Source: Armatimonadota bacterium | GTDB lineage: Bacteria; Bacteroidota; Ignavibacteria; OLB7 | NCBI GenBank assembly: GCA_020850315.1 | Contig: JADZEY010000020.1 | Span: forward strand, 21,618 to 85,617 | Length of the DNA stretch: 64,000 nucleotides | Direction: 5' to 3' | Shown: in pieces, positions 2,486 through 61,945 of the stretch | Layout of the letters: each line of letters begins with the position of its first letter | How positions within the stretch are numbered: the stretch's first letter is position 1 | Translations under genes and position numbers: made by a program | Notes under the pieces: generated by a model | Seen by the model: the letters and a program-made list of their open reading frames with translations, nothing else | What the model was told of the DNA's origin: nothing | Databases searched by the model: none

Positions 2486-2491
2486 GGGGAA

Positions 2492-2530
2492 GGGTGAAAA
2501 GTGAAGAGTGAAGGGTGAAAAGTGAAGGAG
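2492..2530 (+). repeat. Half copy of the heptamer repeat element: (RRGTGAA)x5 immediately after the nagZ-like stop
   Basis: The sequence reads gggtgaa aagtgaa gagtgaa gggtgaa aagtgaa. It matches the purine-rich arm of the composite repeats at 45844, 46994, 52811 and 57757. Confidence 0.7.
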
Positions 2531-15792: not shown

Positions 15793-17751
15793 TTACCGCC
15801 GTGGCACAATCTCAATCACTACCGTGCGGTTGTAGAAACGTTGCTCGGCAAGGTTGTTATTGAACGGTGCGCGGCGTTCGTCCTCGCCAAAGCCGTAGGT
15901 GTCGAACGTCACGGTTTTGCCTTGCCGCTGAAGCTCTTCGGTCAAGATTTTCTGTGCTGTTTCGGCGCGGCCTTGCGATAGCTTGTCGTTGTACTCCGGC
16001 GTTCCGGTGATGTCGGTGTGGCCGTGGATAATCACTGTCGCGCCGTCGGGTACTGCTGGGGCAACCGTGCTCACAAGGAAGTCCTTGTAGGTCTCCATCG
16101 TTTTCGATTGATCGAACTCGAACAAGATGGAGTAGCGCGTTGCCACTTCCTCCTCGTCGGGATCCACCACCAACCGGAACTCCTTCGGCTGCGGCGTGAT
16201 TGTCTCACCGTTTTTTGTGGAGATCGTCACTTTCGCGGTGTAGCGACCTTCGGTGGCCCCTGCCAGCAACTCTTTTGGGTCAATCCGAATCTGGTCGCCA
16301 GTCCCCTGATACTTCTTGGTGGTGCCGTTGCGGTCGGTGATCTCGGCAGTCCACATGGCAACGTCGCCAGTGGAAGCAACCCGCAGAATCACTTCCTGCG
16401 CTGGATCCTTCTCAACCGCGTTGATGAACACTGGCTTGTTCATGTCGTCGGGCGAACCGTTCAACTCCACACGGTAGTTTTCTGCATCCACCAAGGTCTT
16501 ATCCTCGCCCTGTGTGGATCCGCTTCCGCTGCGGGCGGTTGGCATTGCGCGCCCTTCGGTGGCGATTCGTGCGGGGTCAATGCTGAAGGTGGAGGTCAGA
16601 TAGTTCTTCACGTTCTCGGCCATCTGCTTTCCGGCATTGGCATCGCCGTTGGCAGAACCAACCAGCTTGACAGAAGATGATGGATTGCGGCGCAGACGGT
16701 CGCCATAGACGTTCAGCACGTTGTAGTACACCTCCATTTGGCGGCGCGAGCGTGTTACCAACGGATCGTTCCCGCCGGTTTCGATTCCCGGCTTAATCAG
16801 TTGTTCTTCGCGGAAGTTTCCGGCATCGGCACTGGAAAGGCGTTTGTAGCGTGAGGGGACATCGGTGGAGCCAGCGTCGAAGAAGACGTAGTTCCGCATC
16901 GGGAAGGTCTCGTTGATACGGCGGCTTCCGGGGATGACGCTTGGCGCGCTCACCACAAAATCGGCTTCTCCCGGTTTCAGTTCATCAATCGGTGTTGGCG
17001 GAACACTGCTGAATTTCAGCGCGATTCCGGCGCGAACGGTGTTCTCTTTGAAATCGGTTAGGTCGTTGTCGGCAGCGTCAATAAAATTTTGGAAGCCGAG
17101 GCGGAACTGAGCGAATGGTGTCACCACAATTTGGGTTCCGGGGCCGGGGCCTTGTAGCGGGATGTCGTATCCCAACCCAAGCTGCGCGCCAATCAGGAAG
17201 CTGCGGATGTTTGCGATCTCCTGCGACGAACTCAGCGTGGTATCGGGGGTGCTGAATTTCACTGTTTGCTCCGATCCCTTCGCCACGTTGATCCCGAAGC
17301 TGGGGCCAACAATGGCATGGAAAAAGCGATTGCCAAGATTCACCCGCAGTGCTGGTTCGATGGAGATGTAGGCTGGGCTAAGGCTTACGTCCTGTGTGAA
17401 GGAGCGGAGTGTGGTGTCGGGAAGCAGCCACGCGGTTCCGGTTGCTTGGTCGAAATCCACAGCACGGTTGTCGTAGCCAATTCCCAAGTTGAAGCCAAGA
17501 AGCGAGCCGGGGTTATACTCCAACAGCCCCCCCAATGCCAAACCCAATCCCGAACCGCTGTTCAGCCGCTGAACCCCATCAAACCCCACAAGCCCATCGC
17601 CCCCCACCATGTTGAGGTTTGCCCCGGCGAACAATCCGTACCACCAGTTTCCCCAACGTTGGTCGGGGCTGGTTTCCTGTGCGTTGGCGGTTGCTGCCGT
17701 TGCGATCGCTGCCAGCAGAATAACCGCCTGATAAATCTTGAGATGCTTCAT
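15793..17751 (-). CDS. Outer-membrane protein with a C-terminal OmpA-like peptidoglycan-binding domain
   Basis: Start at MKHLKIYQAVILLAAIATAATANAQ (ATG complement at 17749-17751). The C-terminus ...IHGHTDITGTPEYNDKLSQGRAETAQKIL...RRAPFNNNLAEQRFYNRTVVIEIV is a canonical OmpA domain. The upstream 175 codons of ORF 15793..18276 are non-coding. Confidence 0.8.
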   Translation of the reverse strand: MKHLKIYQAVILLAAIATAATANAQETSPDQRWGNWWYGLFAGANLNMVGGDGLVGFDGVQRLNSGSGLGLALGGLLEYNPGSLLGFNLGIGYDNRAVDFDQATGTAWLLPDTTLRSFTQDVSLSPAYISIEPALRVNLGNRFFHAIVGPSFGINVAKGSEQTVKFSTPDTTLSSSQEIANIRSFLIGAQLGLGYDIPLQGPGPGTQIVVTPFAQFRLGFQNFIDAADNDLTDFKENTVRAGIALKFSSVPPTPIDELKPGEADFVVSAPSVIPGSRRINETFPMRNYVFFDAGSTDVPSRYKRLSSADAGNFREEQLIKPGIETGGNDPLVTRSRRQMEVYYNVLNVYGDRLRRNPSSSVKLVGSANGDANAGKQMAENVKNYLTSTFSIDPARIATEGRAMPTARSGSGSTQGEDKTLVDAENYRVELNGSPDDMNKPVFINAVEKDPAQEVILRVASTGDVAMWTAEITDRNGTTKKYQGTGDQIRIDPKELLAGATEGRYTAKVTISTKNGETITPQPKEFRLVVDPDEEEVATRYSILFEFDQSKTMETYKDFLVSTVAPAVPDGATVIIHGHTDITGTPEYNDKLSQGRAETAQKILTEELQRQGKTVTFDTYGFGEDERRAPFNNNLAEQRFYNRTVVIEIVPRR

Positions 17752-34551: not shown

Positions 34552-35871
34552 TTGCAACTCTCCAAACATATCGGGACCGCTGCGTGGTCTGCTGCCGATA
34601 AAGCACTCTACGTGTTGATTGGCCTTGCCTTCATCCTTCCGCAAAAGGTGATTGGCGAACATAATTGGGGGGTGGCAACGCTGGCCCAAGCCGGCCTAAC
34701 GATCATCTACATGCTCTCGGATGGGTTCGCGCTGCAAGCGTTGGTGAACTTCGGGATGACCGAGTCGCGCCGCCGCCAAGCACTGACCATCTCGGCGGTG
34801 CTGCACGTGGGGTTTATCGCGCTCTGCACCGCCACCGTGTACTTCGCCCGAACCTGGTGGGCCAGCGTCCTGAACGAGCCTGATCTGATCCCCACGCTGG
34901 AGCTGTTTCCCCTTGTCGCGCTTGGGTTTTTGCTGCGGAACTACTTCCTGAAAATCTCCCAACTCCACATTGATACCCGCGCCACATTCCTGATTGATGC
35001 TGCGTGGATTGGAACCACTGTGCTGCTGGTGCTGCATGGCTGGGCCAACGCTTGGATGAACACCGCCGAGGATATGATGCTCATCAGCGCGGCATCCGCC
35101 GGGGCTTCCTCGCTGATGGGGCTGATGCTGTACGCCCGCCGCATCCGGTTTGCCCGAACGATTGACCGCGAACTGCTGCGGGAGATGGTTCGCTTTGGCC
35201 GCACCCAGATGCTCTCGGCAGGAACGCTGGCGCTGCAAACGCAGGGGGATTACCTTCTGCTAAAGCTGTTCGTAAGCTCGTCGGTGGTTGGCAACTATGA
35301 TGCTGCAAAGAAGTTGTTCCGTGGCTTCGAGGCGCTTCGCGATGCGGGTTCGCTGTTTGTCTATCCGGCGGTTGCACGGCTGAAATCGCAGGGGAGGGAA
35401 GGGGAGATGGTGCTGTTGGTGGAGAAGATGATCGGCTTCATGACGCTGCTTGCCGTTCCGGTGGTGGTGGTTGTCTGGATTGGCCCAACGGCGCAACTGT
35501 TTGAACTGATCTACCGCGGAAAGTACCAGCAGGCGGCCTTCATCTTCCAGCTGATGTGCCTTGCTGGATTGGCAATCCCGTTCAGCATGAACATCAACGT
35601 GCTGAACGGCCTTAGCCAGGCCCGGGCACTGCTGCGGGTGATCCTGATGTCGGCAGCGATCTTCTTCCTCAGTGGGTTGGCCCTGGTTCCGATGCTTGGT
35701 GTCCATGGCATGGCCATCACCATTGCCCTCAGCTATGTTGCGCTTGGCGCGTTTAGCACCCGTGCGGTAAAGAAGTTCGTCCCCTTCAGCATCCGCGGCG
35801 CGTTTGGCCGCTGGCGCGATGCTGTGGAGTTTATCCGGCGGCAGTGGAGGAAAAGAAGGAGAGTGGGGTAG
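34552..35871 (+). CDS. Polysaccharide/oligosaccharide flippase (MOP superfamily, Wzx-like)
   Basis: About 12 TM helices and an N-terminus ...AAWSAADKALYVLIGLAFILPQ typical of the polysaccharide biosynthesis protein family. Confidence 0.7.
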   Translation: MQLSKHIGTAAWSAADKALYVLIGLAFILPQKVIGEHNWGVATLAQAGLTIIYMLSDGFALQALVNFGMTESRRRQALTISAVLHVGFIALCTATVYFARTWWASVLNEPDLIPTLELFPLVALGFLLRNYFLKISQLHIDTRATFLIDAAWIGTTVLLVLHGWANAWMNTAEDMMLISAASAGASSLMGLMLYARRIRFARTIDRELLREMVRFGRTQMLSAGTLALQTQGDYLLLKLFVSSSVVGNYDAAKKLFRGFEALRDAGSLFVYPAVARLKSQGREGEMVLLVEKMIGFMTLLAVPVVVVVWIGPTAQLFELIYRGKYQQAAFIFQLMCLAGLAIPFSMNINVLNGLSQARALLRVILMSAAIFFLSGLALVPMLGVHGMAITIALSYVALGAFSTRAVKKFVPFSIRGAFGRWRDAVEFIRRQWRKRRRVG

Positions 35872-35916
35872 TGGTCAGTGGGCAGTAGTCAGTGGTCAGT
35901 GGTCAGTGGTCAGTAG
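35862..35916 (-). repeat. Reverse-oriented half copy of the repeat element: (GTGGTCA/GTAGTCA)n, the complement of ACTGACC
   Basis: gagtggggta gtggtca gtgggca gtagtca gtggtca gtggtca gtggtca gtag, followed by G6CT5. It overlaps the flippase stop codon. Confidence 0.7.
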
Positions 35917-39735: not shown

Positions 39736-42700
39736 TTAAATCTCCACCGCATCCGCATACACAACCCGGCGGCCATAGCGGCGTTGGGAGATTGTTTGGC
39801 CCGCCCCGCCTCCGGTTTTGTAGGCTACCTCCATGTTGATATGCCGCTCGTATTCCTTCACCACCAAACGGTACGGACGGCTGCCGCGTGGTTCGGGAAG
39901 GGTGATTACGCCGCTCCAGAGCAGCGGAGCTAAGTCGTCGGTGATCTTGTGCGGAAGCAGTTGGATGTCCGCATCCGGCACCGGAACCCATCCCAAATCG
40001 GGGTCGCTGATGTCGCTGCGGCGGGTCTCGACAATCACCTCGAAATCCCCACCATCGCGCTGTGCTTCGGATTTGTTGAACGTGGGGCCAGCAATGGCAA
40101 CACCAATTTTCCGTGGATTCCCTGCGTCGGGGCCGATGGTCATCAGACGGTCGGGGGCAATCTGTGCGAAGTCGGCAAGCACCACCCGCGAGACGAACGC
40201 ATTCTTCACGCTGTTCGGCTGGTACCGCACCAACGCCAGCCGGATAAATGGATAGTAGCTTGGCCCAACATCAATCTGGATATCGCAATACCAGAGCTGG
40301 CGGACTTCATCATACTCCACTTTATGCCCCAACACCGCCAGCGTCGGCTTGGCGGGGATGTAGCTGAGTTCGGGCATGATGGCCAATTCAGCCTTGTCGG
40401 CAAACTCAAGCTCCCGCACCGCTTTCACCCGCGCCTCAGCTTGCGAAAAGTCCAACCGTGGTTGCAGGCTCTTCATGTACAGATCAGCCTTCCGCCACGT
40501 TCCCTTTTTTGCTTCCCCTTGTTCCATGGCCTCTTTTTTTGCGGTCTCTTTTTTTGCGACCTCCTTTTCTGCGGTCTCACTCCCCTGCTTCTTTTTGGTG
40601 TTCAGATAGGCTTGCACAATCGCTTCGTGCTGCTCGGAGGTTGCCAGCGTGGTTTTTTCGGCGGGTTCCTCGCTGCCGGGAATTTCTTCCAGCGACACGC
40701 CGTAGCGATCCTGATGCCACGCCTTGAAGTCGGCGGCTTTCGGGCTTCCGGTGGGGGGGAAGGATGACCAAATTGGATCGGCCCCCCACTGGGTGACGTA
40801 GGGGAGGTACTGCTTCGGGATGTCGGAAAACGCCCCAGTCCAGATCAGCACTCCAAGCCGTTCTTCGTCGCCGGAACTGAACCACGGGCGGTCCAGATAG
40901 ACCCGCAACCCGCCCCCTTTCCGCGCACTGGCAACCGTGGCCCCTTCGGCCTTGGATCCCCAGCCAAATGTTGGAAGGATGTACAGGAGCTTTGGGGCAT
41001 CGGGGCGGGCCGAACTCAAGATTTTTTTCTCCACCATCTCCGAATTCCGCGAGATGTTGTTCTCCACTTTTTGCGGATCATCTGGGTCCGGTTTCAGCAA
41101 TTCCGGCGGCAGATATTCACGGAACCGAGTGGTGGCGTTGATGAAGTAGCGGACCTTCCGGTACTTGGTGTCGCCGAACTCATGCCGCCGCTCGAAATAG
41201 ATATGTGGAGCCTTCGGGTCGTCAACCAACAGCTCACAGACGGTAGCCTTGCCGGGGATCATCTCCCACTTCGGCTTCGATAACGGATCCACTGGTTCTT
41301 CCCACTCGGCGCGGACCTCGGCCCGTGCTGTGGATTTGCAACTGAGCAGCAGTTTGTCGGCCAGCGTGGCGTAGGTGTTCCCAAGAAATTTGCGAACACC
41401 CAAGCTGTCGAACTTCGGGACCCCAAGTGGTTGCTGCGTTGCGTGCACAAACTCTATCGTCCGGTACGGGGTCAGCATCCAAAGCCGCCCGAACTGTGCC
41501 ATTGTGGCAAGCTGCGATAGCGCCGGTGGGTTCAGCTCCTCAATCCAGCTCCAAGCTCCCAACAGCTTCAAGGCTTTTTTCCCGAACACCGATGCGTAGC
41601 GGCAACGGAAAACATCACCTTTGGGAAGGAAGAGGGTGAGCATCCGTTCGCTCGCGCTCCACTCCGGCAGCTTCCCTGCGGCTCCTTCGCGCAGTTGCAA
41701 TCGGAAGGGGAGTTTCTGATACCACTCCCCGCCATCCCCGAAGGCAATCGCCACCGCACCGTTTGGCGCGGAAAGCGGTGGGCCGGGGATTGCAGCTATC
41801 GGCTCGGCCTCCCCTTTGGCCGGAATCATCATCACTTTTCCGGCGGGAATCCCCGGCACGTTGAAGAAGATCACCCCCTCGGCAAGCGGGTCGGGGAGGT
41901 AGGGAAGCTCCCCGATCTGAGTCTCGGTTGCGATTGGGTTGGGCGGGTTCTTGTCCGATGCCGAACCGATCTGTTGGAATCGCCCCTCCTTGCTGGCAAT
42001 CAACTCATACTGTGCTATCAGCGTTGCGTCGTTGGCCAAATCGTCCGCCGGAAGGTCGAACACTCCGTGCGTCTCGGCATCAAGCTGGGCAATGGCTGGC
42101 GGTGTGATGTGGCGTTGGCTGGCGGCATCGGTTGGGGTGGTGTCCAGCGGCTGGCTGCTGTTCATGCTGCGGATCACCAGCCGCTCCAACGATTCGCCGG
42201 GAAGCGTATCAATCGCCTGCTTCAGCACCACAAACGGGTGCGAGACCGGCTCGAATCGGCGATAGATCACCGGCGGCGTTGCCCACTGGGTGTCCGATTG
42301 CGGAAGCGATTTCACGGTTGGCCCGTTCCCTGCCAAATCCACCGCACGGATGCGAATCCGGTACTCCCTCCCGAACCGCAGCATCGGAAGCGACCCCGGG
42401 ATCACGTGGAAGCTGGTCCGGAGTTTGAAGTCGTCGGAAAATTCGTTCGGCGCACGGACTACCTTGCCGTCGTTATCCACCGCCGCGCCGGGGCGTGGGA
42501 CGCTTAGGCTCCACCCTTCCCATGTCCCCATGGATTCGGCCAGGAACAGGTCGTTGGAGGAACCATCGGATGATTCCGTTGTTGCCGTTTGGATGAACCC
42601 TTCATCCTGATGCTCCTCGGCAATGCCAGCCCCGGTGAACTCATACCGCCCTGTCCGCTGGTGCAGTGAGAACCACTGGTTGGCCCCAACATCCAGCACG

Positions 42701-43986
42701 TCCACACGATAGCCACGGATAAGGTCCTCGGCGTAGAACAACGGATCTGTCCCCGACTCCAACTCCGTCCGTTTCTGCGTTGCCGATTTCAGTATTCCCG
42801 CCAGCCGCAGTGCCCTTCCCGTTCGGACGATGGAGATGCCGCCGGTGCGTGGGGCGGGGATGCTGCTGTTGGTGGGGGAGTCGGTGGTGGCGCGCCCCTG
42901 GCGTGCCGAAAGGTTGTAGGCAGCGTTGTGCAGCTTCATCGCCATCCCCTGAACATCCACTTGGACTAAGTGGTAGGCGGGTTGCTTCTGCTGGTCGTTC
43001 GGCAGGGGGTCGCTAAGGCGTATCGCGCCGCTTTCGGCAACCTCCGGCATTGCTGGGCGCGGCTGGGCGATAAATCCGGCATCGAAATACTTGAAGGCGG
43101 TACGCGGCGTGCGGTCCTTTTTGGGCAGCGAAGGAAGGCCGCTTGGCCAGATTGGGATCACTTTGATTTGCCCCGTTGCCGGAAACGCCCCGCCGCTGGG
43201 GATCACCTCCAGATCGAACACCAACCCAAGCCTGCGAAGCATTGATGGATACGCCCCCAACATCGCTACCATCTGGTGGAAATCCAGCTCCGGCGGGTTG
43301 ATAACGCTTTTGCGATGCTGCCCTGTCCGCACAACATTCACCTTGTTGTGAACCGCCGGGGTGTCCGGATCTTTCTTGTTTTTTGGAGCAAAGAAATGCT
43401 GAAGCTGCGCAAAATCTGTGGCGGGGTCTGGGGGGCCGGGGGGGATTGCGCCTAACTTCCTCATCACGGGACGGAACGTCTCGATGATGTTCTTCTCCGG
43501 GGTGGTTCCCACGGTGGAGTTCACCAGTGGATTGCGGTAGGTGTTGATTGGCCCAAGCTGCTTGGCAAGCTCCTCCACGCTGGGGAATTCTTCCGACGCA
43601 CCAAATGCTTGATAGACCTGTTTCAGATAGCCCAGCACGTTGGCCATTGGGTAGCTGAAAATCAAGCGGTTATCCAGCTGATCGAATTGGTACGGGCGGA
43701 CGTAGGTTGTTTTGGGGAACAGTGCTTTCCAGAGCTTCGATTCGGCGGCCAGATTGGGGGCGGGAAGGAATGGTTTGCAGGTGAAAGTGCTGCCGCCAAC
43801 GCTGGCCTGAAACTCCAGTTTGGCCAGCGTGGCGGGCCAATCCAGAAAATCATTGAACTGGCCAAGCTGCTCCGGGATAACATCGGTCTTCAGTTGCGGC
43901 GCAACAACAACGGAAAGGATTGGGTTGCCGCTTCCTTTGGCAATGCTGCGTGGCAGTGCTGTCCATAATATGCTTTGCTCGATCAT
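39736..43986 (-). CDS. Giant hypothetical protein (1416 aa) with no recognisable catalytic motifs, signal peptide or TM segments
   Basis: Uninterrupted 4.25-kb ORF with balanced protein-like composition. The antisense ORFs over it have typical GC-artefact composition. It has no Walker A, HExxH, YD/RHS or CxxCH motifs, and contains an internal K/E-rich low-complexity stretch (KKKQGSETAEKEVAKKETAKKEAMEQGEAKK). Confidence 0.7.
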   Translation of the reverse strand: MIEQSILWTALPRSIAKGSGNPILSVVVAPQLKTDVIPEQLGQFNDFLDWPATLAKLEFQASVGGSTFTCKPFLPAPNLAAESKLWKALFPKTTYVRPYQFDQLDNRLIFSYPMANVLGYLKQVYQAFGASEEFPSVEELAKQLGPINTYRNPLVNSTVGTTPEKNIIETFRPVMRKLGAIPPGPPDPATDFAQLQHFFAPKNKKDPDTPAVHNKVNVVRTGQHRKSVINPPELDFHQMVAMLGAYPSMLRRLGLVFDLEVIPSGGAFPATGQIKVIPIWPSGLPSLPKKDRTPRTAFKYFDAGFIAQPRPAMPEVAESGAIRLSDPLPNDQQKQPAYHLVQVDVQGMAMKLHNAAYNLSARQGRATTDSPTNSSIPAPRTGGISIVRTGRALRLAGILKSATQKRTELESGTDPLFYAEDLIRGYRVDVLDVGANQWFSLHQRTGRYEFTGAGIAEEHQDEGFIQTATTESSDGSSNDLFLAESMGTWEGWSLSVPRPGAAVDNDGKVVRAPNEFSDDFKLRTSFHVIPGSLPMLRFGREYRIRIRAVDLAGNGPTVKSLPQSDTQWATPPVIYRRFEPVSHPFVVLKQAIDTLPGESLERLVIRSMNSSQPLDTTPTDAASQRHITPPAIAQLDAETHGVFDLPADDLANDATLIAQYELIASKEGRFQQIGSASDKNPPNPIATETQIGELPYLPDPLAEGVIFFNVPGIPAGKVMMIPAKGEAEPIAAIPGPPLSAPNGAVAIAFGDGGEWYQKLPFRLQLREGAAGKLPEWSASERMLTLFLPKGDVFRCRYASVFGKKALKLLGAWSWIEELNPPALSQLATMAQFGRLWMLTPYRTIEFVHATQQPLGVPKFDSLGVRKFLGNTYATLADKLLLSCKSTARAEVRAEWEEPVDPLSKPKWEMIPGKATVCELLVDDPKAPHIYFERRHEFGDTKYRKVRYFINATTRFREYLPPELLKPDPDDPQKVENNISRNSEMVEKKILSSARPDAPKLLYILPTFGWGSKAEGATVASARKGGGLRVYLDRPWFSSGDEERLGVLIWTGAFSDIPKQYLPYVTQWGADPIWSSFPPTGSPKAADFKAWHQDRYGVSLEEIPGSEEPAEKTTLATSEQHEAIVQAYLNTKKKQGSETAEKEVAKKETAKKEAMEQGEAKKGTWRKADLYMKSLQPRLDFSQAEARVKAVRELEFADKAELAIMPELSYIPAKPTLAVLGHKVEYDEVRQLWYCDIQIDVGPSYYPFIRLALVRYQPNSVKNAFVSRVVLADFAQIAPDRLMTIGPDAGNPRKIGVAIAGPTFNKSEAQRDGGDFEVIVETRRSDISDPDLGWVPVPDADIQLLPHKITDDLAPLLWSGVITLPEPRGSRPYRLVVKEYERHINMEVAYKTGGGAGQTISQRRYGRRVVYADAVEI

Positions 43987-45814: not shown

Positions 45815-45843
45815 AATAAAATTTTGGGGGTGTTGGGCAAGAG

Positions 45844-45922
45844 GGAATGGTGAATGGTGAATGGTGAATGGTGAATGGTGAATGGTGAATGAAGCATGGC
45901 CTCTTTGCTACTGACCACTGAC
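45844..45922 (+). repeat. Composite heptamer repeat element (full copy): (TGGTGAA)x6, an 18-bp linker, then (ACTGACC)x2
   Basis: agggaatggtgaatggtgaatggtgaatggtgaatggtgaatggtgaatg aagcatggcctctttgct actgaccactgacc. It sits in the divergent region between the 92-aa gene and hemH. Confidence 0.8.
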
Positions 45923-45990
45923 CAATCCCCCAAACCGCATTATTTTCAACTACAGACACCCCCTCTTCCCCTGAAACCGTATTTTCCCGC

Positions 45991-47013
45991 ATGGAACAGA
46001 TCGGAGTGATCTTGCTGAATCTTGGCGGCCCCGACTCGCTTGAGGCGATCCGCCCGTTTTTGCGTAATCTTTTTCTTGACCCAGAGATCATCAAAATCCC
46101 GCTGCCGGGGCCGTTGGGAAGGCTGTTCCCACGGCGGTTGTTTGCGGAGTTCGTCTCGTGGCGGCGCACCCCAAAAGTGCGGCCCAACTACCAGCAGATT
46201 GGGGGGAAGTCGCCGTTGGTGGAGCGGACAGTGGAGCAAGCCGAAGCCTTGCAGGCGGAGCTGAACCGCCGATTTGCTGGGAAGGCACAGTTCCATGTGA
46301 AGTTAGGGATGCGCTACTGGCATCCGTTCACGGTGGTTGCCGCCCAGGAGTTCCGGCGGCAGGGGATTCGCAACGTTTTTCTGCTGCCGCTCTATCCACA
46401 GTATTCCCGCACCACAACTGGCTCCAGTGCAAAGGAGTGGCGTGATCTTCATCGGGACAACTTTGGCCGTTGCTTCCGGGTGAAATCGGTTCGCGATTAC
46501 TACCGCCACCCGCAGTACATCGCCTCGATTAACGAGCGCATCGAAGCCACGCTGCAAGCAAAATTCACTCAGGCCGAGCGGCGCAACCTTCATATCCTGT
46601 TCTCGGCCCACGGCACTCCAGTTTCCGAAGTAGAAACTGGCGATCCGTATTCAGGGCAAATTCGGAAAACTGTGGAGTTAGTGATGCAGCTTCGGGGGAA
46701 CGACTATCCCCACCACCTCTCGTTCCAAAGCCGTGTTGGCCCGGTGGAGTGGTTGCAGCCGTACACGCAGGATAAACTTGCTGAGTTAGGGAAAAGCGGA
46801 GTGAAAAGCCTGCTGGTGGTTCCTGTGGCGTTCGTCACCGATCACATCGAGACGCTGCATGAGATTGACATCGAGCTTCGCGAAGAAGCCGAACATGCAG
46901 GCATCGAAAAATATGAAGTGATGTACGCCCTGAACGCCGAACCCCCGTTCATCGCCGCCCTTGCTGATGTTGTAGAAGCGAGGTATGTGGGAAGGATGAA
47001 GAGTGAAGAGTGA
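45991..47013 (+). CDS. hemH: Ferrochelatase
   Basis: Ferrochelatase family: ...GVILLNLGGPDSLEAIRPFLRNLFLDPEII... and C-terminal ...VPVAFVTDHIETLHEIDIE. The last five codons (MKSEE) are encoded by the heptamer repeat. Confidence 0.9.
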   Translation: MEQIGVILLNLGGPDSLEAIRPFLRNLFLDPEIIKIPLPGPLGRLFPRRLFAEFVSWRRTPKVRPNYQQIGGKSPLVERTVEQAEALQAELNRRFAGKAQFHVKLGMRYWHPFTVVAAQEFRRQGIRNVFLLPLYPQYSRTTTGSSAKEWRDLHRDNFGRCFRVKSVRDYYRHPQYIASINERIEATLQAKFTQAERRNLHILFSAHGTPVSEVETGDPYSGQIRKTVELVMQLRGNDYPHHLSFQSRVGPVEWLQPYTQDKLAELGKSGVKSLLVVPVAFVTDHIETLHEIDIELREEAEHAGIEKYEVMYALNAEPPFIAALADVVEARYVGRMKSEE

Positions 47014-47172
47014 AGGGGGGTGAAGGATGAAGGATGAAGGATGAAGGGTGAAGGATGAAGGGTGAAGGATGAAGAATGAAGAATGAAGAATGAAGAATGA
47101 AGAATAGTCTCTTCGCTACTGACCACTGACTACTGACCACTGACTACTGACCACTGACCACTGACTACTGAC
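46994..47172 (+). repeat. Composite heptamer repeat element (longest copy): (GAAGRRT)x~15, linker agtctcttcgct, then (ACTGACC / ACTGACT)x~9
   Basis: gaaggatgaagagtgaagagtgaaggggggtgaaggatgaaggatgaaggatgaagggtgaaggatgaagggtgaaggatgaagaatgaag(aatgaag)x4 aatagtctcttcgct actgaccactgactactgaccactgactactgaccactgaccactgactactgacc. It fills the entire hemH-hemY spacer and overlaps the hemH stop. Confidence 0.85.
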
Positions 47173-47177
47173 CCACA

Positions 47178-48536
47178 TTGCCTACCTCTCACATCATCAT
47201 CGGCGGCGGAATCTCTGGCGCGGCACTGCTCCATTACTTGGCGTTGGCCGGGAAGGATGTTTTGTTGTTGGAAAAAGGGAAACGGCTTGGCGGGGTGATT
47301 GGCACGCACCGGAACGATGCCGGAGCATTGATTGAAACCGGCCCGAACAGCACCCAAACCAGCAACCCCGATCTTCTTGATCTCATCGAATCATTAGGAT
47401 TGCGTGGCCAGATGCTGGAGGCCAACCCGATTGCCCGCAACCGCTACATCCTTCGTGATGGAAAGCTCTATCCGGTGCCAGCGTCGCCCCCAGCATTTCT
47501 CCGCTCCTCACTCTTCTCCCTGCCGGCCAAATTGCGATTGCTTCGCGAGCCGTTTATTGGCCGGGCTGCGGTTCAGGAGGAGTCGGTGGCGGAGTTCGTG
47601 CGGCGGCGGATTGGATCGGAGTTTTTGGAGTATGCCATCAACCCGTTTGTCTCGGGGGTGTATGCTGGGCGACCCGAGCGGTTATCGTTGCGGCACGCCT
47701 TCCCCAAGCTGCACAAGCTGGAAGCAGAGCACGGCAGCTTGATCCGTGGCGCAATTCGTGGCGGGCGGGCGCGGTGGCAAGCGGCGCGGCGCGGCGAAGT
47801 CCCCCGTGACCGTGCCAAGCTGGTATCCTTCCAGCAAGGGATGGAAACGCTTCCTGCGGCAATCGAGCAGCGGTGGCGCGGTCGCATCCGGTTGGGCGTT
47901 GCGGTGCAGCGTTTGCAGCGGGATGCCGACGGCTGGGTGGCTGTTTCCAACGCAGGGGATTTTCGGGTCGCAAGGGTGATACTGGCAACCGACGCAACCA
48001 CAGCGGCCACGCTGCTTCAGCCGCATCACCCGGGCGCGGCGCAGTCGTTGCGCGAAATTGAGTATCCCCCCGTTGCCGTTGCCGTCAGCCTTTATCGCCG
48101 TTCCGATATTCAGCACCCGTTGGATGGCTTCGGGATGCTGATCCCCGAAGTTGAGAAGCGAAAAATTTTAGGGGTGATCTTCTCTTCAACGCTCTTCCCG
48201 CACCGCGCACCGGAAGGGATGGTTGCCTTGACGACGTTCATCGGTGGGGCGCGCCAACCGGAGCTTCCACTGCTTGGTCAGGATCGGCTGGCTGAGCTTG
48301 TCTATGCTGAACACGCTGCGTTGCTGGGCGCGCTGGCGCCGCCATGTTCGTTCAATCTAACCGCTTGGGAGCGGGCAATCCCGCAGTACAACGTAGGCTA
48401 CGGCGGCGTGCTGGATTCCATTGCTGATGCCGAGATTGCCTTACCAGGATTGCATCTGCTGGGAAATTATCGTGGCGGCGTTTCGGTGGCCGATTGCATC
48501 CAATCGGCCCGAAATCTTGCAGCCGCAATCGCATAA
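47178..48536 (+). CDS. hemY: Protoporphyrinogen / coproporphyrinogen III oxidase (HemY family, FAD-dependent)
   Basis: N-terminal FAD dinucleotide-binding motif IIGGGISGAALLHYLA...LLLEKGKRLGGVIGT, size 452 aa, and position between hemH and hemB. The start is a TTG immediately after the repeat. Confidence 0.8.
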   Translation: MPTSHIIIGGGISGAALLHYLALAGKDVLLLEKGKRLGGVIGTHRNDAGALIETGPNSTQTSNPDLLDLIESLGLRGQMLEANPIARNRYILRDGKLYPVPASPPAFLRSSLFSLPAKLRLLREPFIGRAAVQEESVAEFVRRRIGSEFLEYAINPFVSGVYAGRPERLSLRHAFPKLHKLEAEHGSLIRGAIRGGRARWQAARRGEVPRDRAKLVSFQQGMETLPAAIEQRWRGRIRLGVAVQRLQRDADGWVAVSNAGDFRVARVILATDATTAATLLQPHHPGAAQSLREIEYPPVAVAVSLYRRSDIQHPLDGFGMLIPEVEKRKILGVIFSSTLFPHRAPEGMVALTTFIGGARQPELPLLGQDRLAELVYAEHAALLGALAPPCSFNLTAWERAIPQYNVGYGGVLDSIADAEIALPGLHLLGNYRGGVSVADCIQSARNLAAAIA

Positions 48537-48648
48537 ATCCTAACCTCACAATCACCCACAACAATCACCCACAGTTGCGGGGCCACGCGCCAGCCGCTGG
48601 GGGAAGAAAAAAAATCAATCAACAAGCAAGCAACAACCAATACCCTGC

Positions 48649-51052: not shown

Positions 51053-51634
51053 ATGTATTTTCGCGATCCCGAGGCCATCCTCATTCCGATGAACGTTTTC
51101 AACAACGGTGTTGCCAAGCTGCTGGCAACGCCTTCCGTCTCCTTTTCGGATTCTTCTGTGACTATTCGACAACTTCAGCCGCACGACATCGTGGAGTGGC
51201 TTCGTATGCGCGAAGCATTATGGCCCCAAGAAGATGCTGCCGACATTGTTAGCGGCCTTGCCGACTATCTGCTGCCGGCCAGCCCTTGCGCTGTCTTCGT
51301 GTGCGAACCCGAGCCGGGGCGTTTGGTGGGATTTATTGAAATCGCCATCCGCAGCTACGCCGAAGGGTGCCGCACCGACCGCGTTGGATATGTGGAAGGT
51401 TGGTGGGTGGATGAAGAATATCGGCAAAACGGAGTTGGGGGAAAGCTGATGCAAGCCGCCGAAGCCTGGGCGCGCCTGCATGGATGCGACGAGATGGGGT
51501 CCGACGCTGTGGTGGAGAATTCCGGCAGCCAGCAGGCTCATCAACACCTTGGCTACCAAGTTTCCGAAACGTTAGTTCATTTCCGCAAGCCGCTAACCAG
51601 CAAGGGGGATCGGATACCGTTGGATATCCGATAG
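51053..51634 (+). CDS. GNAT-family N-acetyltransferase (AAC(6')-like)
   Basis: GNAT core ...VGYVEGWWVDEEYRQNGVGGKLMQAAEAWARLHGCDEMGSDA with an acetyl-CoA-binding Q/RxxGxG/A motif. Confidence 0.7.
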   Translation: MYFRDPEAILIPMNVFNNGVAKLLATPSVSFSDSSVTIRQLQPHDIVEWLRMREALWPQEDAADIVSGLADYLLPASPCAVFVCEPEPGRLVGFIEIAIRSYAEGCRTDRVGYVEGWWVDEEYRQNGVGGKLMQAAEAWARLHGCDEMGSDAVVENSGSQQAHQHLGYQVSETLVHFRKPLTSKGDRIPLDIR

Positions 51635-51656
51635 CCATCACCGTTCCACTATTGCC

Positions 51657-52043
51657 ATGACCGAATCGAATCCTTCAGCACCCACGTTCTTCCTCCGCTC
51701 GCAACCAGACATCCAGCAAGGGTGTGTTGACTTCCATTGGGGAAGCATGTGGTGGTTTGGCAGCCACGATTTGGGGAATACCACCGGCGTAACAATGGGG
51801 TTGATGACAATGAAACCCGCCGCCACAAACGACCGTCACTTCCACCCAAATTGCGAAGAGGTTCTCTACTTACAGCAGGGATTGCTGGAGCATCGGATTG
51901 GGGAAGAAATAGTCCGCCAGCAACCGGGTGAGTTTCTGACCATCCCCGCAAACACGCCGCACAGCAGCACCAACATTGGGGAAGAGGAGGCCAAGCTGAT
52001 TATCGCCTTCTCATCCGCTGCGCGAGAATTTATCCCCTGTTAG
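51657..52043 (+). CDS. Cupin-domain protein
   Basis: Two-motif cupin signature (...HFHPNCEEVLYLQQG... and ...PANTPHSSTNIGEE...). Confidence 0.7.
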   Translation: MTESNPSAPTFFLRSQPDIQQGCVDFHWGSMWWFGSHDLGNTTGVTMGLMTMKPAATNDRHFHPNCEEVLYLQQGLLEHRIGEEIVRQQPGEFLTIPANTPHSSTNIGEEEAKLIIAFSSAAREFIPC

Positions 52044-52102
52044 ATGTTCCCGGCCATTGAATGCTTGGAACGCTGGCAACACCAACATAACCAAGCATCT
52101 CC

Positions 52103-52813
52103 ATGCGCAACACTGCACCGATTGCTTCCCAGAAACTGTTCCTGATAGCCTTGCTTGCCGTTGCCGCAATGGCGGCCGGATGCAGCCACACCAATAATCT
52201 TGCCAAGTATCACCTGCACGGTAAGCCCGCAATGTTCCGCGCCTCCGCTTCCGGGGGCGGCTCTTCTTCGGTCAGTATCAACAACCCAACCGATAGCTGG
52301 ATTGGCGACATCGCCGCCATTGCTGGCTCGATTGCCCTAAGCTCCCAAGCACAAAAAAAATTAGAGAAGGCTATCAACCCCGATTCGCTGGCGGCCAGCT
52401 TGGCCGTTGGGGTGCGCCAGTCGGCCATTGATTACTTCCAGCTTCGCCCGCCAGTGGACCCCAGCGAAACCCCAGAGTATTTGGTGGAGATTGAGTTGAC
52501 CGACTACGCACTCCATTCCGGTACAGAAGGGGTTGCTGCGGGGGTGACAGGGGAAGTGCGGATTGTTCACATTGCCACCGGAGAGATTGTTTGGGAGAAT
52601 TGGGAGACAACAGTGATACCGCTTTGGGGAAGCTCCTCCGGTTCGGATAAGCGGGAAGTGGATGCCGCAAGCAGCGGAAGCAACGCCGTTGGGCTGTTCA
52701 ATCTGGAAGAAGAAGAAATTCGCCGCATCCTGAATGATGGCGCGTTGGCCGTTGGGCGTTATCTTGGCGACGAACTTCGCGAAGACCTTGCTGAAATGTT
52801 CGAGGAAGAATGA
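52103..52813 (+). CDS. Hypothetical lipoprotein
   Basis: Lipoprotein signal MRNTAPIASQKLFLIALLAVAAMAAGC. No family recognised. Confidence 0.5.
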   Translation: MRNTAPIASQKLFLIALLAVAAMAAGCSHTNNLAKYHLHGKPAMFRASASGGGSSSVSINNPTDSWIGDIAAIAGSIALSSQAQKKLEKAINPDSLAASLAVGVRQSAIDYFQLRPPVDPSETPEYLVEIELTDYALHSGTEGVAAGVTGEVRIVHIATGEIVWENWETTVIPLWGSSSGSDKREVDAASSGSNAVGLFNLEEEEIRRILNDGALAVGRYLGDELREDLAEMFEEE

Positions 52814-52897
52814 ATGGAGAATGGAGAATAGGTTCTTCGCTAATGACTACTGACTAATGACTAATGACCTCCTCTTGCAACTGACCACTGACTCACA
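52811..52897 (+). repeat. Composite heptamer repeat element (full copy): (GAATGGA)x2-3, linker ggttcttcgct, then (AATGACT/ACTGACT)x4 and ctgaccactgac
   Basis: tgaatggagaatggagaatagg ttcttcgct aatgactactgactaatgactaatgacc tcctcttgca actgaccactgactcac. It fills the whole spacer between the lipoprotein gene and the next gene. Confidence 0.8.
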
Positions 52898-52902
52898 ACT
52901 CA

Positions 52903-53625
52903 ATGCTGCAACGATCTTTACTACTACTGCTGCTGTTCATGCTGTGCTCGGGTGGGGTAGCGTTAGCGCAATCCACCGGTGGGGACTCACCTGACACAAG
53001 CTACATCCCCGAGCCTGCCTACCCCGATACGTTGGCCATGGAACCCGACACTGACATCACCTACGAGCCAGACTTTGTTGATGGCTACGCTTTTGGTTTG
53101 TACGCCGGGTTCACTGCCGAAAAGCCGGGATTGGATCTTGCAAAATTGGATCCGCAGCTTACTGGCACCTTGGTGATGTATGGTGGTGAGTACTCGGTGC
53201 TGATGGGGGAGTGGTACGTCAACTTCAGCACGGTTGGGTCTCATCTGTACGACCTAAGCAGTGCCTACGATAACTTCACGCTGGATTACAGCGGCTACGG
53301 AACCGGCTACGAAACCTCATTTTTCAAAAACACCTTCACCTTCCGCGCTGGTGCCGATGCGGGAACAGGAACTTTGAAGATGATAAAACGCACCAACCTT
53401 ACCGACTCCACTGGCCATGATCTGTTAGAGGATTATCGCCGCGAGGACTTCTTCTACATCCGCCCGTCGGCCAGCATTGGGGTGCCGATACTGCAAGTGT
53501 TTTTGCTTCGGTTGGCTGGTGGATACATGATGGCGTTTGGGCCAGAGCGTGTGCGCGACCTCAACAATTTCAGCTACGGCCTCCACCTTCTGTTTACGGT
53601 TCGGATGCCCACATTTCGATTCTGA
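52903..53625 (+). CDS. Secreted hypothetical protein, paralog 1 (beta-rich, possibly outer membrane)
   Basis: Signal peptide MLQRSLLLLLLFMLCSGGVALAQ, an acidic/tyrosine-rich N-terminal region, and a C-terminal region alignable to the next gene (e.g. ...MIKRTNLTDSTGHDLLEDYRREDFFYIRP... versus ...MIKKRPDIIDSTGRQILERYRDEDYFLLRP...). Confidence 0.5.
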   Translation: MLQRSLLLLLLFMLCSGGVALAQSTGGDSPDTSYIPEPAYPDTLAMEPDTDITYEPDFVDGYAFGLYAGFTAEKPGLDLAKLDPQLTGTLVMYGGEYSVLMGEWYVNFSTVGSHLYDLSSAYDNFTLDYSGYGTGYETSFFKNTFTFRAGADAGTGTLKMIKRTNLTDSTGHDLLEDYRREDFFYIRPSASIGVPILQVFLLRLAGGYMMAFGPERVRDLNNFSYGLHLLFTVRMPTFRF

Positions 53626-53693
53626 GACACTCAGCAATTCATGCACGTTCCACCGCAAATAACTGATATTAACCACACCGGAGATACATCCAG

Positions 53694-54482
53694 ATGAACC
53701 GACTTCTTCTTTCCCTTTTCACCGTTTTGGTGTGCGCTGCAATCCCAGCCGCTGCCCAGATGGACGACGGCGGCGGCGACGGCAGCAGCCAAGACGACTC
53801 CATCACCGTTGACAGCTTGTACAACGAGCCGATGGAGCCCGACACCGCCTACCAGTACAGCGACCCGTACGACAGCGGCGACCAAGGCTATGGCTACAGC
53901 GATGAAGGGGAGTACGACTACAACAGCTACGACTACGAGCCAACCTTCTTCTCCACACGCAACGGGTTGATGGTTGGCCCAACGATTCAGTTCACCGAGC
54001 TTCGCCCCAAGGATCTGGATCCTGACCTCAGCGGTGAGTTCGTCTTTTTTGGGGGGGAGATCATCGCGGCGGTGAACGGGTTTTTGCTTGGCGGCGGGTG
54101 GTCTAGCGCCACACTGTATGATTTATCGCCGAAGTATGATGAGCTATCGCTCAGTTCGGGCGGCTTCATCATCGGCTACGACCAACAGTTCTGGTACCAG
54201 AAATTCTCCATTCGCCCAACGGTGATGATTGGTGGAGGTGAGATTACCATGATCAAAAAACGCCCGGATATCATTGACTCCACTGGCCGCCAGATACTGG
54301 AGCGGTATCGCGATGAAGACTACTTCTTGCTCCGCCCAGGAATCAGCCTTGGGTTTGCCCCGAACCAATTTTTCGACATCCGCCTGACAGCCGACTACAA
54401 CTATCCAATCGGTGGTGATAAGGTGAGCGATCTGCGGAAGCTGAACTATGGGTTGGCACTGATGATTGGGCTGGGGAGATAG
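53694..54482 (+). CDS. Secreted hypothetical protein, paralog 2 (tandem duplicate of the preceding gene)
   Basis: Signal peptide MNRLLLSLFTVLVCAAIPAAAQ, a highly acidic D/Y/G/S-rich N-terminal segment and a conserved C-terminal domain shared with paralog 1. Confidence 0.5.
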   Translation: MNRLLLSLFTVLVCAAIPAAAQMDDGGGDGSSQDDSITVDSLYNEPMEPDTAYQYSDPYDSGDQGYGYSDEGEYDYNSYDYEPTFFSTRNGLMVGPTIQFTELRPKDLDPDLSGEFVFFGGEIIAAVNGFLLGGGWSSATLYDLSPKYDELSLSSGGFIIGYDQQFWYQKFSIRPTVMIGGGEITMIKKRPDIIDSTGRQILERYRDEDYFLLRPGISLGFAPNQFFDIRLTADYNYPIGGDKVSDLRKLNYGLALMIGLGR

Positions 54483-54504
54483 CTCCTATCAACAACATTC
54501 CCCA

Positions 54505-54550
54505 ACAAAAAAGCCTTCCGAACTCTCTTCGGAAGGCTTTTACTTTTTCT
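54505..54550. terminator. Bidirectional rho-independent terminator
   Basis: A6-gccttccgaa-ctctc-ttcggaaggc-ttttacttttt. It lies between paralog 2 (+) and the sugar transferase gene (-). Confidence 0.65.
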
Positions 54551-54570: not shown

Positions 54571-55371
54571 TCACCACGCCCCTTGCCGGCGGAAGACAAC
54601 AGCAAGCGTTTTAATTAGGATGATACAATCGCTCCATAACGTTTGCTTGCGGATATACTGCATATCCAACATCACCCGCTCATGGAATCCCAGCATATTC
54701 CTTCCGCTGATCTGCCACAACCCAGAGATGCCAGGGCGAACCAGTTCATAAATCTGAAGATTATGGCCGTAGTCTTCGATTTCACGGGGAAGAATCGGGC
54801 GCGGGCCAACAAGGCTCATGGTTCCTTGCAGAACATTCAGCAGTTGGGGAAGTTCATCAAGGCTGGTGCGGCGAAGGAAGTTTCCAACGGTAGTTACGCG
54901 GGGGTCTTGGCGCAGCTTCCGGTAGGTGTTCCATTGGTGCTGGGCGGTGGGATTTTCGCGCAGGTAGTGGCGCAGCATATCGTCCGAGTTGTGGTACATC
55001 GAACGGAACTTATACATCCCGAAGATGCCGCCACCTTCCCCAATCCGTTTTTGCCGGAAGAGGATGGGGCCCGGTGAGTCAATCTTGATTGCAATGGCGA
55101 TAATCGCCATGGCCGGAAGAATGACCGGCATCAACAGCAGTGTGATGGCAAGATCAAACGCCCGTTTCACAACTTGCTGGAATGGGGTAAGCACCGGCTG
55201 AAACGCCAGATGGATGATGGGCTCTGAGCGGTGAATCGGCTCCGTTGTGGAAACACTGATTCCGTCAGTAGTTCGGTTAACCCGAAAATCGTAATCACGG
55301 GGCAATGTTGCGGCGGTTGCTTGCAATGGTTGCCGGCGGTACGTCTTTTGGTGCGTGCTTTCGATATTCAA
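54571..55371 (-). CDS. Undecaprenyl-phosphate sugar phosphotransferase (bacterial sugar transferase, WbaP/WcaJ C-terminal-domain type)
   Basis: ...[57 protein letters not shown]...[22 protein letters not shown]... is the diagnostic motif set of this family. Confidence 0.85.
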
Positions 55372-57756: not shown

Positions 57757-60050
<2,294 letters not shown>

Positions 60051-61816: not shown

Positions 61817-61945
61817 GGTTGTCTAAACTCCTGAATGATGTGTTGAAGGAATGTCAAATGTCGCGTGTCGAATGCGGAATGCGGAATGATGAAGAGCAAG
61901 GCGCGGACGGATTCGGTTGCCGCGCTAAAGTACAACGCCGAAGGC

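Follow-up and report, generated by a model that had tools for sequence, protein, structure and literature searches.

Among the long simple repeats of bacteria, heptamers are the most over-represented, and to our knowledge nobody knows why the unit has seven bases or what these repeats do. The present study examined repeats of this type in a 64,000-nucleotide (nt) stretch of contig JADZEY010000020.1 (assembly GCA_020850315.1), hereafter called the window, in which purine-rich heptamers are joined through a short linker to heptamers of the form ACTGACY (Y being C or T). Several comparable systems have been described. Intergenic heptamer repeats include the STRR of Calothrix and Nostoc as well as GGGAATC in Xanthomonas and GGGGAYT in Nostoc, with occasional inverted pairs (PMC4692102). 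The STRR or 'long simple sequence repeats' (LSSR) class goes back to Mazel 1990 and Mrazek 2007, as these are summarized in PMC4692102 and PMC4679880. TAACTGA repeats occur in Beggiatoaceae, cyanobacteria, and Bacteroidetes, often just before start codons, and are missing in close relatives (PMC4679880). Chloroflexus aurantiacus carries (GATAGRA)n heptamer satellites (Subirana and Messeguer 2019, PMC6749651), and repetitive extragenic palindromes (REPs) tagged with GTAG, which have stems of 5-13 bp and an unpaired GTAG, are found in Planctomycetes, cyanobacteria, and Chloroflexi (PMC3733652). A sequence-only reading of the window had presented its repeats as a previously unrecognised family; intergenic heptanucleotide tandem repeats are already a described class (PMC4679880, PMC4692102, PMC6749651).

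We propose, with a probability of roughly 60%, that the window loci are heptanucleotide microsatellites that represent a slippage-driven, asymmetric derivative of a heptamer-array hairpin and that play a modest role as spacers at most.

Heptamer arrays in the window and their variation

Period-7 arrays were confirmed at all six reported places by direct reading and with Tandem Repeats Finder, which gave 2.1-16 copies per array and identified seven as the dominant tandem-repeat period of the window. The sequence ACTGACYACTGAC, with one mismatch at most, had 19 matches against 0.08 expected, and the periodic pattern GAA-N4, repeated four times, had 23 against 0.02. The units stand head to tail at several intergenic loci of one genome, as in heptanucleotide simple-sequence repeats of the LSSR/STRR class, which are defined by at least three tandem copies of a 7-nt unit, and the arrays overlap predicted genes only at stop codons. 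The multi-locus, two-arm family of the sequence-only reading (four composites and two half copies) is therefore present far above chance at the places given for it, although its arrays start a few bases earlier. Units of 7 nt that follow one another contiguously are not CRISPR, in which repeats of 24-48 nt alternate with unique spacers, and this had been correctly recognized. Likewise, the arrays fill intergenic spacers as had been claimed: on a map of the longest open reading frames (ORFs) they extend from stop codon to start codon, and four stop codons (those of hemH, gene 52103-52813, gene 34552-35871, and ligA) lie within them. The linker that had been regarded as common to all composites is conserved in three of the four (CTCTTTGCT at 45901, CTCTTCGCT at 47109, and TTCTTCGCT at 52833), where it has the form (C/T)TCTTYGCT immediately 5' of A[CA]TGAC; the composite at 57758 has TTTGCAACAG in this position.

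The predicted lengthening and shortening of the arrays in 7-nt steps by replication slippage was shown by a comparison with L194, a Joint Genome Institute (JGI) metagenome contig that is 96% identical to window positions 51607-54502 (2.9 kb) and carries the same composite 3. The two sequences differ by a clean 14-nt indel, which corresponds to two extra units in the purine arm of L194; such variation by whole units between close relatives is also a feature of the LSSR/STRR class. Two further contigs of similar G+C content, L159 and L138, hold additional composites with the same junction. Since L194 is an independent contig that carries the composite, and since L159 and L138 carry more, the arrays are not assembly artefacts, an objection that the sequence-only reading had raised against itself.

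A comparison of orthologous loci, which had been suggested as a check, revealed that the spacers of L122, L125, L197, and L199 lack the arrays. L122, in which hemH is 86% identical and gene order is the same, has no heptamer arrays in either spacer; the spacers are wholly replaced, with no clean insertion boundary and no readable target-site duplication. In L125 (11043-11050), L197 (11026-11029), and L199 (9976-9979), hemH and the neighboring oxidase gene overlap by a few bases, and the pair is probably translationally coupled in these relatives. In the window, the hemH stop at 47013 and the oxidase start at 47178 are separated by a 164-nt array. L125 and L197 showed no period-7 arrays over 21 kb. 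Since the arrays are real, vary by whole units, and are missing from the orthologous spacers of relatives, we infer a recent gain of the arrays and not a loss in the relatives. Other heptamer arrays were noted in L199 (hemH 73% identical) at 8024-8073 and 16496-16521, namely, (GCTGGTT)n right after the stop of a small helix-turn-helix gene and (GGGGAGT)n.

Relationship of the linker to a widespread hairpin

The window junction TCTTYGCTAMTGACYAMTGAC (21 nt) was found in 70 metagenome loci with G+C contents of 38-74%. The dominant architecture at these loci is a palindrome, (AGTCAGT)n-AGCAAAGA-loop-TCTTTGCT-(ACTGACT)n, which is common in soil metagenomes; the sole contig identified by protein homology belongs to Gemmataceae. 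At 28 of the approximately 66 distinct loci, TCTTTGCT marks the exact start of the stem and pairs with AGCAAAGA; stems are 22-40 bp long with loops of 3-33 nt. The arm units covary, with C/A at unit position 2, T/C at position 7, and 22 compensatory cells. G.T and A.C mismatches in the hairpins (29 vs 25) were uninformative on the selection of one strand as RNA. No Rfam family was found for the hairpin loci, 16 related loci giving only sub-threshold matches to miRNA precursors, which are generic long hairpins.

The apical-stem half TCTTYGCT is joined directly to A[CA]TGACY at 45901, 47109, and 52833. Judged from this shared sequence, the linker and the ACTGACY arm are the right half of the hairpin element, with TCTTYGCT as the right half of the apical stem. 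The purine-rich left arms of the window do not pair with ACTGACY, and complementary inverted arms are absent from its composites. The earlier view that the repeats are not palindromic, and thus not like REPs or bacterial interspersed mosaic elements (BIMEs), stands for the window copies themselves; it does not extend to the linker and ACTGACY arm, which form half of a widespread hairpin.

The ACTGACY unit is not confined to this lineage. A scan for (ACTGACY)3 with one genome per species yielded at least 120 stretches. Among the matches listed were Cyanobacteria (Microcoleus, Anabaena, Tychonema, and Moorena), Acidobacteriota, Planctomycetota, Chloroflexota, Verrucomicrobiota, Bacteroidota, Latescibacterota, and others; in a scan of a viral collection, ACTGACY arrays were common in viral contigs among the matches listed, and two control units of the same composition yielded 36 and 18 stretches. 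Perfect tandem repeats in the fetched DNA comprised 269 arrays of period 7 and 25 at most of any other period, and most period-7 units contained an ACTG/CAGT core. Many of the fetched arrays are inverted pairs, with (nGTCAGT)n on the left and (ACTGACn)n on the right, located in nine co-directional, eight convergent, and one divergent spacer. Since composites of the window type were found in none of 142 arrays in genomes outside the lineage and in one of 147 in viral contigs, the composite architecture is largely lineage-specific. The single viral case, L211, is an unrelated IMG/VR contig with 63% G+C in which three consecutive co-directional spacers (683-780, 1466-1527, and 2022-2120) are filled by heptamer arrays. 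Two of these are (GTGGTCA)n/(CACTGAC)n hairpins, and the third holds a composite like those of the window, (GGATGAA)4-AA-(CACTGAC)4, with an ATG 3 nt after it. On a separate contig, L110, a match to the Acido-Lenti-1 RNA (2293-2347; 43.3 bits against a gathering threshold of 37) lies approximately 5 kb from an ACTGACY hairpin.

A Gemmataceae site provides a view of how such hairpins change. In L144, a perfect hairpin fills the 98-nt spacer from the phoH stop to the pgpH start, and this stop-to-start filling is shared with the window arrays. The phoH-pgpH spacer hairpin is present in six Gemmataceae genomes, in five of which it is built from heptamers; the other has no repeat units. The units are AGTAGTC (two genomes), AGTTGTC, AGCTATC, and GAAATCC, and the right arms opposite them are (GACTACT)n, (GACAACT)n, (GATAGCT)n, and (GGATTTC)n. 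In one of five further genomes, the (AGTAGTC)n/(GACTACT)n spacer contains one GTAGCCA/TGGCTAC unit that is matched in both arms. All six hairpins have predicted energies of -50 to -78 kcal/mol with 31-56 pairs. In a four-genome alignment, 18 pairs changed on both sides, compared with 9.0 +/- 1.9 in shuffles (0 of 500 reached 18) and 6 at most when the partners were slid. With few and related sequences, these results are supportive rather than proof of a long, heptamer-built hairpin that would be kept at this site while its unit sequence is free. Since the unit sequence appears free at an orthologous site, a sequence-specific reader is argued against for the hairpin family.

We tentatively raise the possibility, which we would not favor over its opposite, that the window repeats lie at the edge of an undescribed cross-phylum class of 'heptamer-array hairpins'. 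Such a class would be defined by stems of 22-56 bp made of tandem 7-nt units, often with a GCAAAGA/TCTTTGC core, that extend exactly from stop to start; its mark would be a hairpin that persists at an orthologous site even as other units take the place of the original ones, the two arms changing in concert. No publication that names ACTGACY arrays, the core GCAAAGA/TCTTTGC, or a concerted change of the two arms came up in a literature search of incomplete coverage, and searches with the unit sequences returned unrelated primer matches only. If the class exists, selection would act on a very stable hairpin, either as RNA (e.g., a site at which a double-strand-specific RNase processes the transcript, or a barrier that separates cistrons) or as DNA. 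Its mode of evolution would be unusual, with slippage homogenizing one arm and the other arm following, and the window composite, as a derivative no longer able to pair, would illustrate the release from this constraint.

Array positions, flanking genes, and host

The arrays are listed in Table 1, together with a seventh, weak locus that was absent from the earlier list.

Table 1. Positions and composition of the heptamer arrays in the window
Feature	Position	Strand	Composition and setting
Half copy, purine-rich	2489-2527	+	AGTGAAG/GGTGAAA units, ~5.6 copies; begins 4 nt past the TGA stop of + gene 854-2485
Half copy, ACTGACC/ACTGACT	35866-35916	-	Reads (GGTCAGT)n on +, ~7 copies
Composite 1, left arm	45845-45899	+	(GAATGGT)6.7 then GAATGAAGCATGG; divergent spacer upstream of hemH
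Composite 1, linker and right arm	45901-45924	+	CTCTTTGCT + (ACTGACC)2; right array 45910-45924
Composite 2, left arm	46991-47103	+	~16 purine-rich units: GAAGAGT, GAAGGAT, GAAGGGT, GAAGAAT
Composite 2, linker and right arm	47109-47173	+	CTCTTCGCT + (ACTGACC/ACTGACT)8; right array 47118-47173
Composite 3, left arm	52805-52829	+	GAATGAATGGAGAATGGAGAATAGG; only ~2.6 purine units; holds the TGA stop of gene 52103-52813
Composite 3, linker and right arm	52833-52893	+	TTCTTCGCT + (AATGACT/ACTGACT)4, then CCTCCTCTTGCA, then ACTGACCACTGACT
Composite 4, left arm	57758-57794	+	(GAAAAGT)5.3, between two minus-strand genes
Composite 4, right arm	57804-57829	+	GACCACT/ACTGACY, ~3.7 units; no TCTTYGCT linker, TTTGCAACA in linker position
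Seventh, weak locus	61870-61893	+	(GAATGCG)2.7 then GAATGATGAA; between two minus-strand genes

The right-arm units in the window are ACTGACC, ACTGACT, and AATGACT. In composite 1, the left-arm unit GGTGAAT agrees at five of seven positions with GGTCAGT, the complement of the right arm, and the composite is flanked by TTTGGGGG (45823-45830) and CCCCCAAA (45927-45934). The composite 2 array encodes the last seven codons of hemH and its TGA stop (47011-47013), and 4 nt past the composite the protoporphyrinogen oxidase gene begins with a TTG start (47178). Its ends are bracketed by ATGTGGG (46985-46991) and CCCACAT (47172-47178), and one purine unit, AGTGAAGAG (47002-47010), is 89% complementary to its linker CTCTTCGCT. 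The right part of composite 3 consists of arrays 52840-52868 and 52880-52893, mostly AATGACT with two ACTGACY units after CCTCCTCTTGCA; gene 52903-53625 has its ATG 9 nt past this composite. In composite 4, the left arm, read as its complement (CACTTTT)n, forms the leader of the permease gene, the minus-strand ATG of which is just below 57756, and the ligA TAG stop (57813-57815, minus strand) sits within the array. The TAG stop of + gene 34552-35871 is within the first unit of the 35866-35916 array.

The genes around the arrays encode riboflavin synthase, HemH, a flavoprotein of the protoporphyrinogen oxidase type, HemB, HemL, an ABC permease, and LigA. The G+C content of the window is 56-57%, and its cumulative GC skew rises. 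The window hemH (45991-47013) is identical to a protein of a GenBank metagenome-assembled genome (MAG) labelled 'Armatimonadetes bacterium'; the nearest named relatives (72-77% identity) are MAGs of Chlorobiota and 'Candidatus Kapabacteria'. The host was therefore treated as an uncultured bacterium of the Fibrobacteres-Chlorobi-Bacteroidetes (FCB) group, and by this protein relationship the GenBank label may be wrong for the source MAG. In the NCBI taxonomy, Kapaibacteriota is a synonym of taxid 976, the identifier of Bacteroidota. No tRNA or tmRNA was found in the window, and no Rfam family reached its gathering score there.

Native leaders, taken as the 25 nt upstream of 44 predicted starts, consist of 31% C, 31% A, 20% T, and 18% G, and a Shine-Dalgarno-like motif was present at nine of the 44 predicted genes against a background of 9%. 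These A/C-rich, G-poor, and Shine-Dalgarno-poor leaders fit the style of translation initiation in the FCB group. Two short A/C-rich tandem duplications, ACAATCACCCACA in two copies (48548-48573) and CAAGCAACAAC in 2.3 copies (48616-48640), are located in the spacer before hemB, and tandem duplication in leaders is thus not confined to heptamers. A period-15 tandem repeat of CTCTTTTTTTGCGGT in 3.2 copies (40531-40578), inside the 1416-residue minus-strand ORF 39736-43986, would give an in-frame repeat of five residues. In the ferrochelatase relatives P0009, P0037, and P0041, the C-terminal tails vary in length and contain short peptide repeats (DPKIR..DPKIR; SEAGQSEAEQ; AGQPDAGQPD); these tails suggest that gene ends may also be written by repeats in other members of the clade.

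Structure, reading frames, and proposed origin

The RNA fold z-scores of the four composites on the plus strand were -2.4, -0.2, +1.2, and -0.3, so that only the 45835 locus is weakly structured, and no significant fold of the four was found on the minus strand. The L159 composite of the same lineage folds worse than all 200 shuffles (z = +2.7). The window composites do not form the imperfect palindromes or stem-loops of REPs and BIMEs. None of the window arrays carries promoter-like or terminator-like consensus sites or is overlapped by an intrinsic terminator with a G+C-rich stem-loop and T run. A clear bidirectional intrinsic terminator stands elsewhere, at 54509-54541, where a 14-bp stem has an A run on one side and a T run on the other; it separates the convergent genes 53694-54482 (+) and 54571-55371 (-).

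On the plus strand, stop codons occur in each of the three frames of every purine arm, and the minus strand has none; start codons are also present in all three frames of these arms. The ACTGACY arms have stops in all plus-strand frames and no start codons at all. Since stops occur in all three frames of the array strand, a 7-nt change in length alters only a few C-terminal residues of the upstream protein, although the arrays overlap stop codons. In a phase-variable contingency locus, such a change would switch a reading frame or a promoter on and off.

Three other candidates were rejected. A sponge for CsrA would need CsrB-like GGA, which is present in GAAGGAT and GAATGGA only and missing in GAATGGT, GAAAAGT, GAAGAGT, and GAAGAAT. 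The regular G-tracts of a G-quadruplex are missing from the window units. Furthermore, GCGAAGA at 46879 and 52779 was considered as the lost left half of the apical stem; both sites are coding, with ELRE codons in the palindrome CTTCGCGAAG, and the resemblance is probably a coincidence.

The window loci are heptanucleotide microsatellite arrays in the stop-to-start spacers of an uncultured FCB-group bacterium, and we propose that they originated as a lineage-specific, asymmetric, and non-palindromic derivative of the (AGTCAGT)n-(ACTGACT)n hairpin. TCTTYGCT and (A[CA]TGACY)n would have been retained as the right half, while the complementary left arm would have been lost and replaced by a purine-rich array of RRTGAAG-like units, into which slippage plausibly expanded the left part of the apical stem. 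This derivation was proposed because the linker can expand as a heptamer and because AGCGAAG, the complement of the linker unit CTTCGCT, is one transition away from AGTGAAG. The expanded linker was observed in L139 (1400-1430, minus strand as fetched), where four units (CTTTGCT CCTTGCT CTTCGCT CTTTGCT) precede ACTGACC units.

The arrays may be tolerated for two reasons. Translation stops in every frame of the array strand, and the upstream protein would gain a few residues at most; moreover, the ACTGACY arm is A/C-rich and G-poor, like the host's mostly Shine-Dalgarno-less leaders. Their effect would mainly be to uncouple neighboring cistrons that were once translationally coupled and to alter a few C-terminal residues; it is most likely limited to these because no stable hairpin, terminator, or promoter was found in the window arrays. 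In other phyla, the palindromic relatives would act through structure rather than sequence.

Several points weigh against this proposal. The derivation of the purine arm appears to be its weakest step: it is based on one unit match of 6/7 and one locus (L139), and the other units match at 3-5 of seven positions. The same polarity and junction (AATAG-NN-TCTTYGCT) recur at at least five loci (three in the window, L159, and L138), and this recurrence, together with the near-identical composite of L211, hints at selection or some copying mechanism. Short inverted repeats flank three of the four composites, and a weak overall hairpin may form from them, although 7-nt matches are expected approximately once per region by chance. 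The L211 parallel also keeps a functional reading alive. Lastly, the gene calls are longest ORFs made with no trained gene finder.

Alternative explanations

An unlikely alternative, but the best of those considered, is a functional intercistronic module at the RNA level that replaces an ancestral coupling through a 4-nt overlap. The purine arm would serve as a series of overlapping start/stop mini-cistrons, with RUGA in every unit and, in the GAAGGAU form, AAGGA at a distance of six nt upstream of each AUG; terminating ribosomes would be caught by this arm and passed to the next start by the unstructured, G-poor ACUGACY arm. The distribution of stop and start codons in the two arms agrees with this scheme, as do the A/C-rich native leaders, the unstructured L159 composite, and the overlap of the hemH and oxidase genes in relatives. 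Start codons lie 3-9 nt past the right arm at 47178, 52903, and L211, and the ATG of L159 is inside the last unit. Translational roles have also been proposed by MacGregor for similarly placed TAACTGA repeats (PMC4679880). However, an array in forward orientation directly before a start was found at 47173/47178 and 52893/52903 and not at 57758 and L138 (both antisense) or at 35866. Of the six lineage composites, those at 46991, 52805, and L159 are sense to transcription, those at 57758 and L138 are antisense to the operon, and that at 45845 is in a divergent spacer; among approximately 160 ACTGAC-type arrays from other genomes, those in co-directional spacers were 40 sense and 43 antisense. 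Most purine-unit variants lack GGA/AAGGA, Shine-Dalgarno motifs are rare in the host, close relatives do without the arrays, and the signal for unstructured RNA is inconsistent across loci (z from -2.4 to +2.7).

We consider it improbable that the arrays are non-autonomous mobile elements similar to REPs or miniature inverted-repeat transposable elements, moved by a RAYT-type transposase acting on GTAG hairpins, with the window copies as decayed insertions. Mobile elements had been suggested in the sequence-only reading, and this idea may draw on the exact 21-nt motif common to contigs of 38-74% G+C (one of them Gemmataceae by protein homology) and an FCB-group genome, on the frequency of ACTGACY arrays in viral contigs, on the presence or absence of arrays between close relatives, and on GTAG, the REP tag, in every unit of the (GTAGTCA)n arms (PMC3733652). 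The comparison with the 86%-identical relative L122 does not bear it out, as there are no target-site duplications and no clean empty sites and whole spacers are replaced. The Gemmataceae hairpin stays at one orthologous site while its units turn over, which represents vertical persistence rather than hopping, and stems of 22-56 bp made of tandem units differ from those of REPs, which measure 5-13 bp and leave GTAG unpaired (PMC3733652). No transposase was seen beside the window copies, the neighbors of which are heme-synthesis genes, ligA, and the ABC permease.

A polar DNA signal or protein-binding array, related to the strand or to replication and similar to KOPS or Chi, had been inferred from the constant orientation of the repeats and is now very improbable. 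The plus strand, which is also G-skewed and gene-rich in the window, carries all four composites and all five purine arms. However, with four or five loci the bias has a p value of approximately 0.06-0.13 (two-sided p = 0.125 for the four composites), and one ACTGACC half copy is inverted. When orientation was compared with the direction of flanking genes, no link was found in the lineage composites or in the arrays elsewhere. Moreover, the units vary freely between loci and are replaced outright at orthologous Gemmataceae sites, which is against a sequence-specific reader, and the arrays are missing from close relatives.

A metagenome assembly artefact is the least credible explanation: the longest array (180 nt) exceeds the typical short-read length, and its exact unit count is uncertain and beyond what short-read assemblies can check, but the same composite is present in the independent JGI assembly within 96%-identical flanks, more copies are found in L159 and L138, and the ACTGACY unit occurs in hundreds of independent assemblies.

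Significance and comparison with known systems

The present results indicate that ACTGACY units recur in many phyla and in viral contigs and that many of the arrays are complementary inverted pairs, which form very long hairpins flush with stops and starts. The turnover of units under a hairpin that is kept distinguishes 'structure matters' from 'sequence matters', and the phoH-pgpH spacer of Gemmataceae offers a concrete system for experiments. In the window itself, a hemH-oxidase pair that is probably coupled in relatives has been pulled apart and several C-termini are written by repeat units, with modest consequences; gene callers and assemblers will stumble at such spacers. The finding in the window is of moderate interest, and the wider hairpin family is the part worth following up.

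Among known systems, KOPS and Chi resemble the window arrays only in an apparent single-strand orientation within the window. They are single 8-mers that are scattered mostly inside genes and are neither tandem nor variable in length, whereas the window arrays are tandem, intergenic, and of variable length. The (GATAGRA)n repeats of Chloroflexus are also purine-rich heptamer arrays at many loci of one genome; however, their unit is different and no two-arm composite was reported (PMC6749651). The likeness to REPs and BIMEs (Di Nocera 2013, PMC3733652) concerns the palindromic relatives only, which are extragenic hairpins located mostly past coding regions or in convergent or co-directional spacers, occur in Planctomycetota and the other REP-bearing phyla, and have GTAG in their units. 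In contrast to REPs, their long stems consist of tandem heptamers in which GTAG is paired and repeated, and the window copies are non-palindromic.

GGGAATC of Xanthomonas and GGGGA(C/T)T of Nostoc share with the window arrays an intergenic position near stops and starts, a length that varies between strains, and occasional inverted pairs (Rehm 2015, PMC4692102). However, these are G-tract quadruplex repeats that prefer four units (PMC4692102), whereas the window units have no regular G-tracts. The TAACTGA repeats are similar in their ACTGA core and in their intergenic position, where they often stop a few nt short of a start codon with no Shine-Dalgarno motif (MacGregor 2015, PMC4679880); they also have a scattered phylogeny, are absent in close relatives with the same gene order, and are mixed with other heptamers (PMC4679880). 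They differ in that the window unit is ACTGAC[CT] or AATGACT rather than TAACTGA, and ACTGAC-type arrays show no bias toward the forward orientation (40 vs 43) and are paired with a purine or inverted arm.

As far as the STRR are described in the sources cited above, the window arrays resemble them in their tandem 7-nt intergenic units, in the many loci per genome, in the adjoining of different heptamers, and in length steps of 7 nt. The host differs, being a member of the FCB group and not a (heterocystous) cyanobacterium, the strict host of the STRR. AATGACC, which is found in several fetched loci and not in the window, equals the reverse complement of the STRR2 unit TTGGTCA. The window arrays are further distinguished from the STRR by their fixed two-arm form, with a conserved junction that corresponds to half of a hairpin core.

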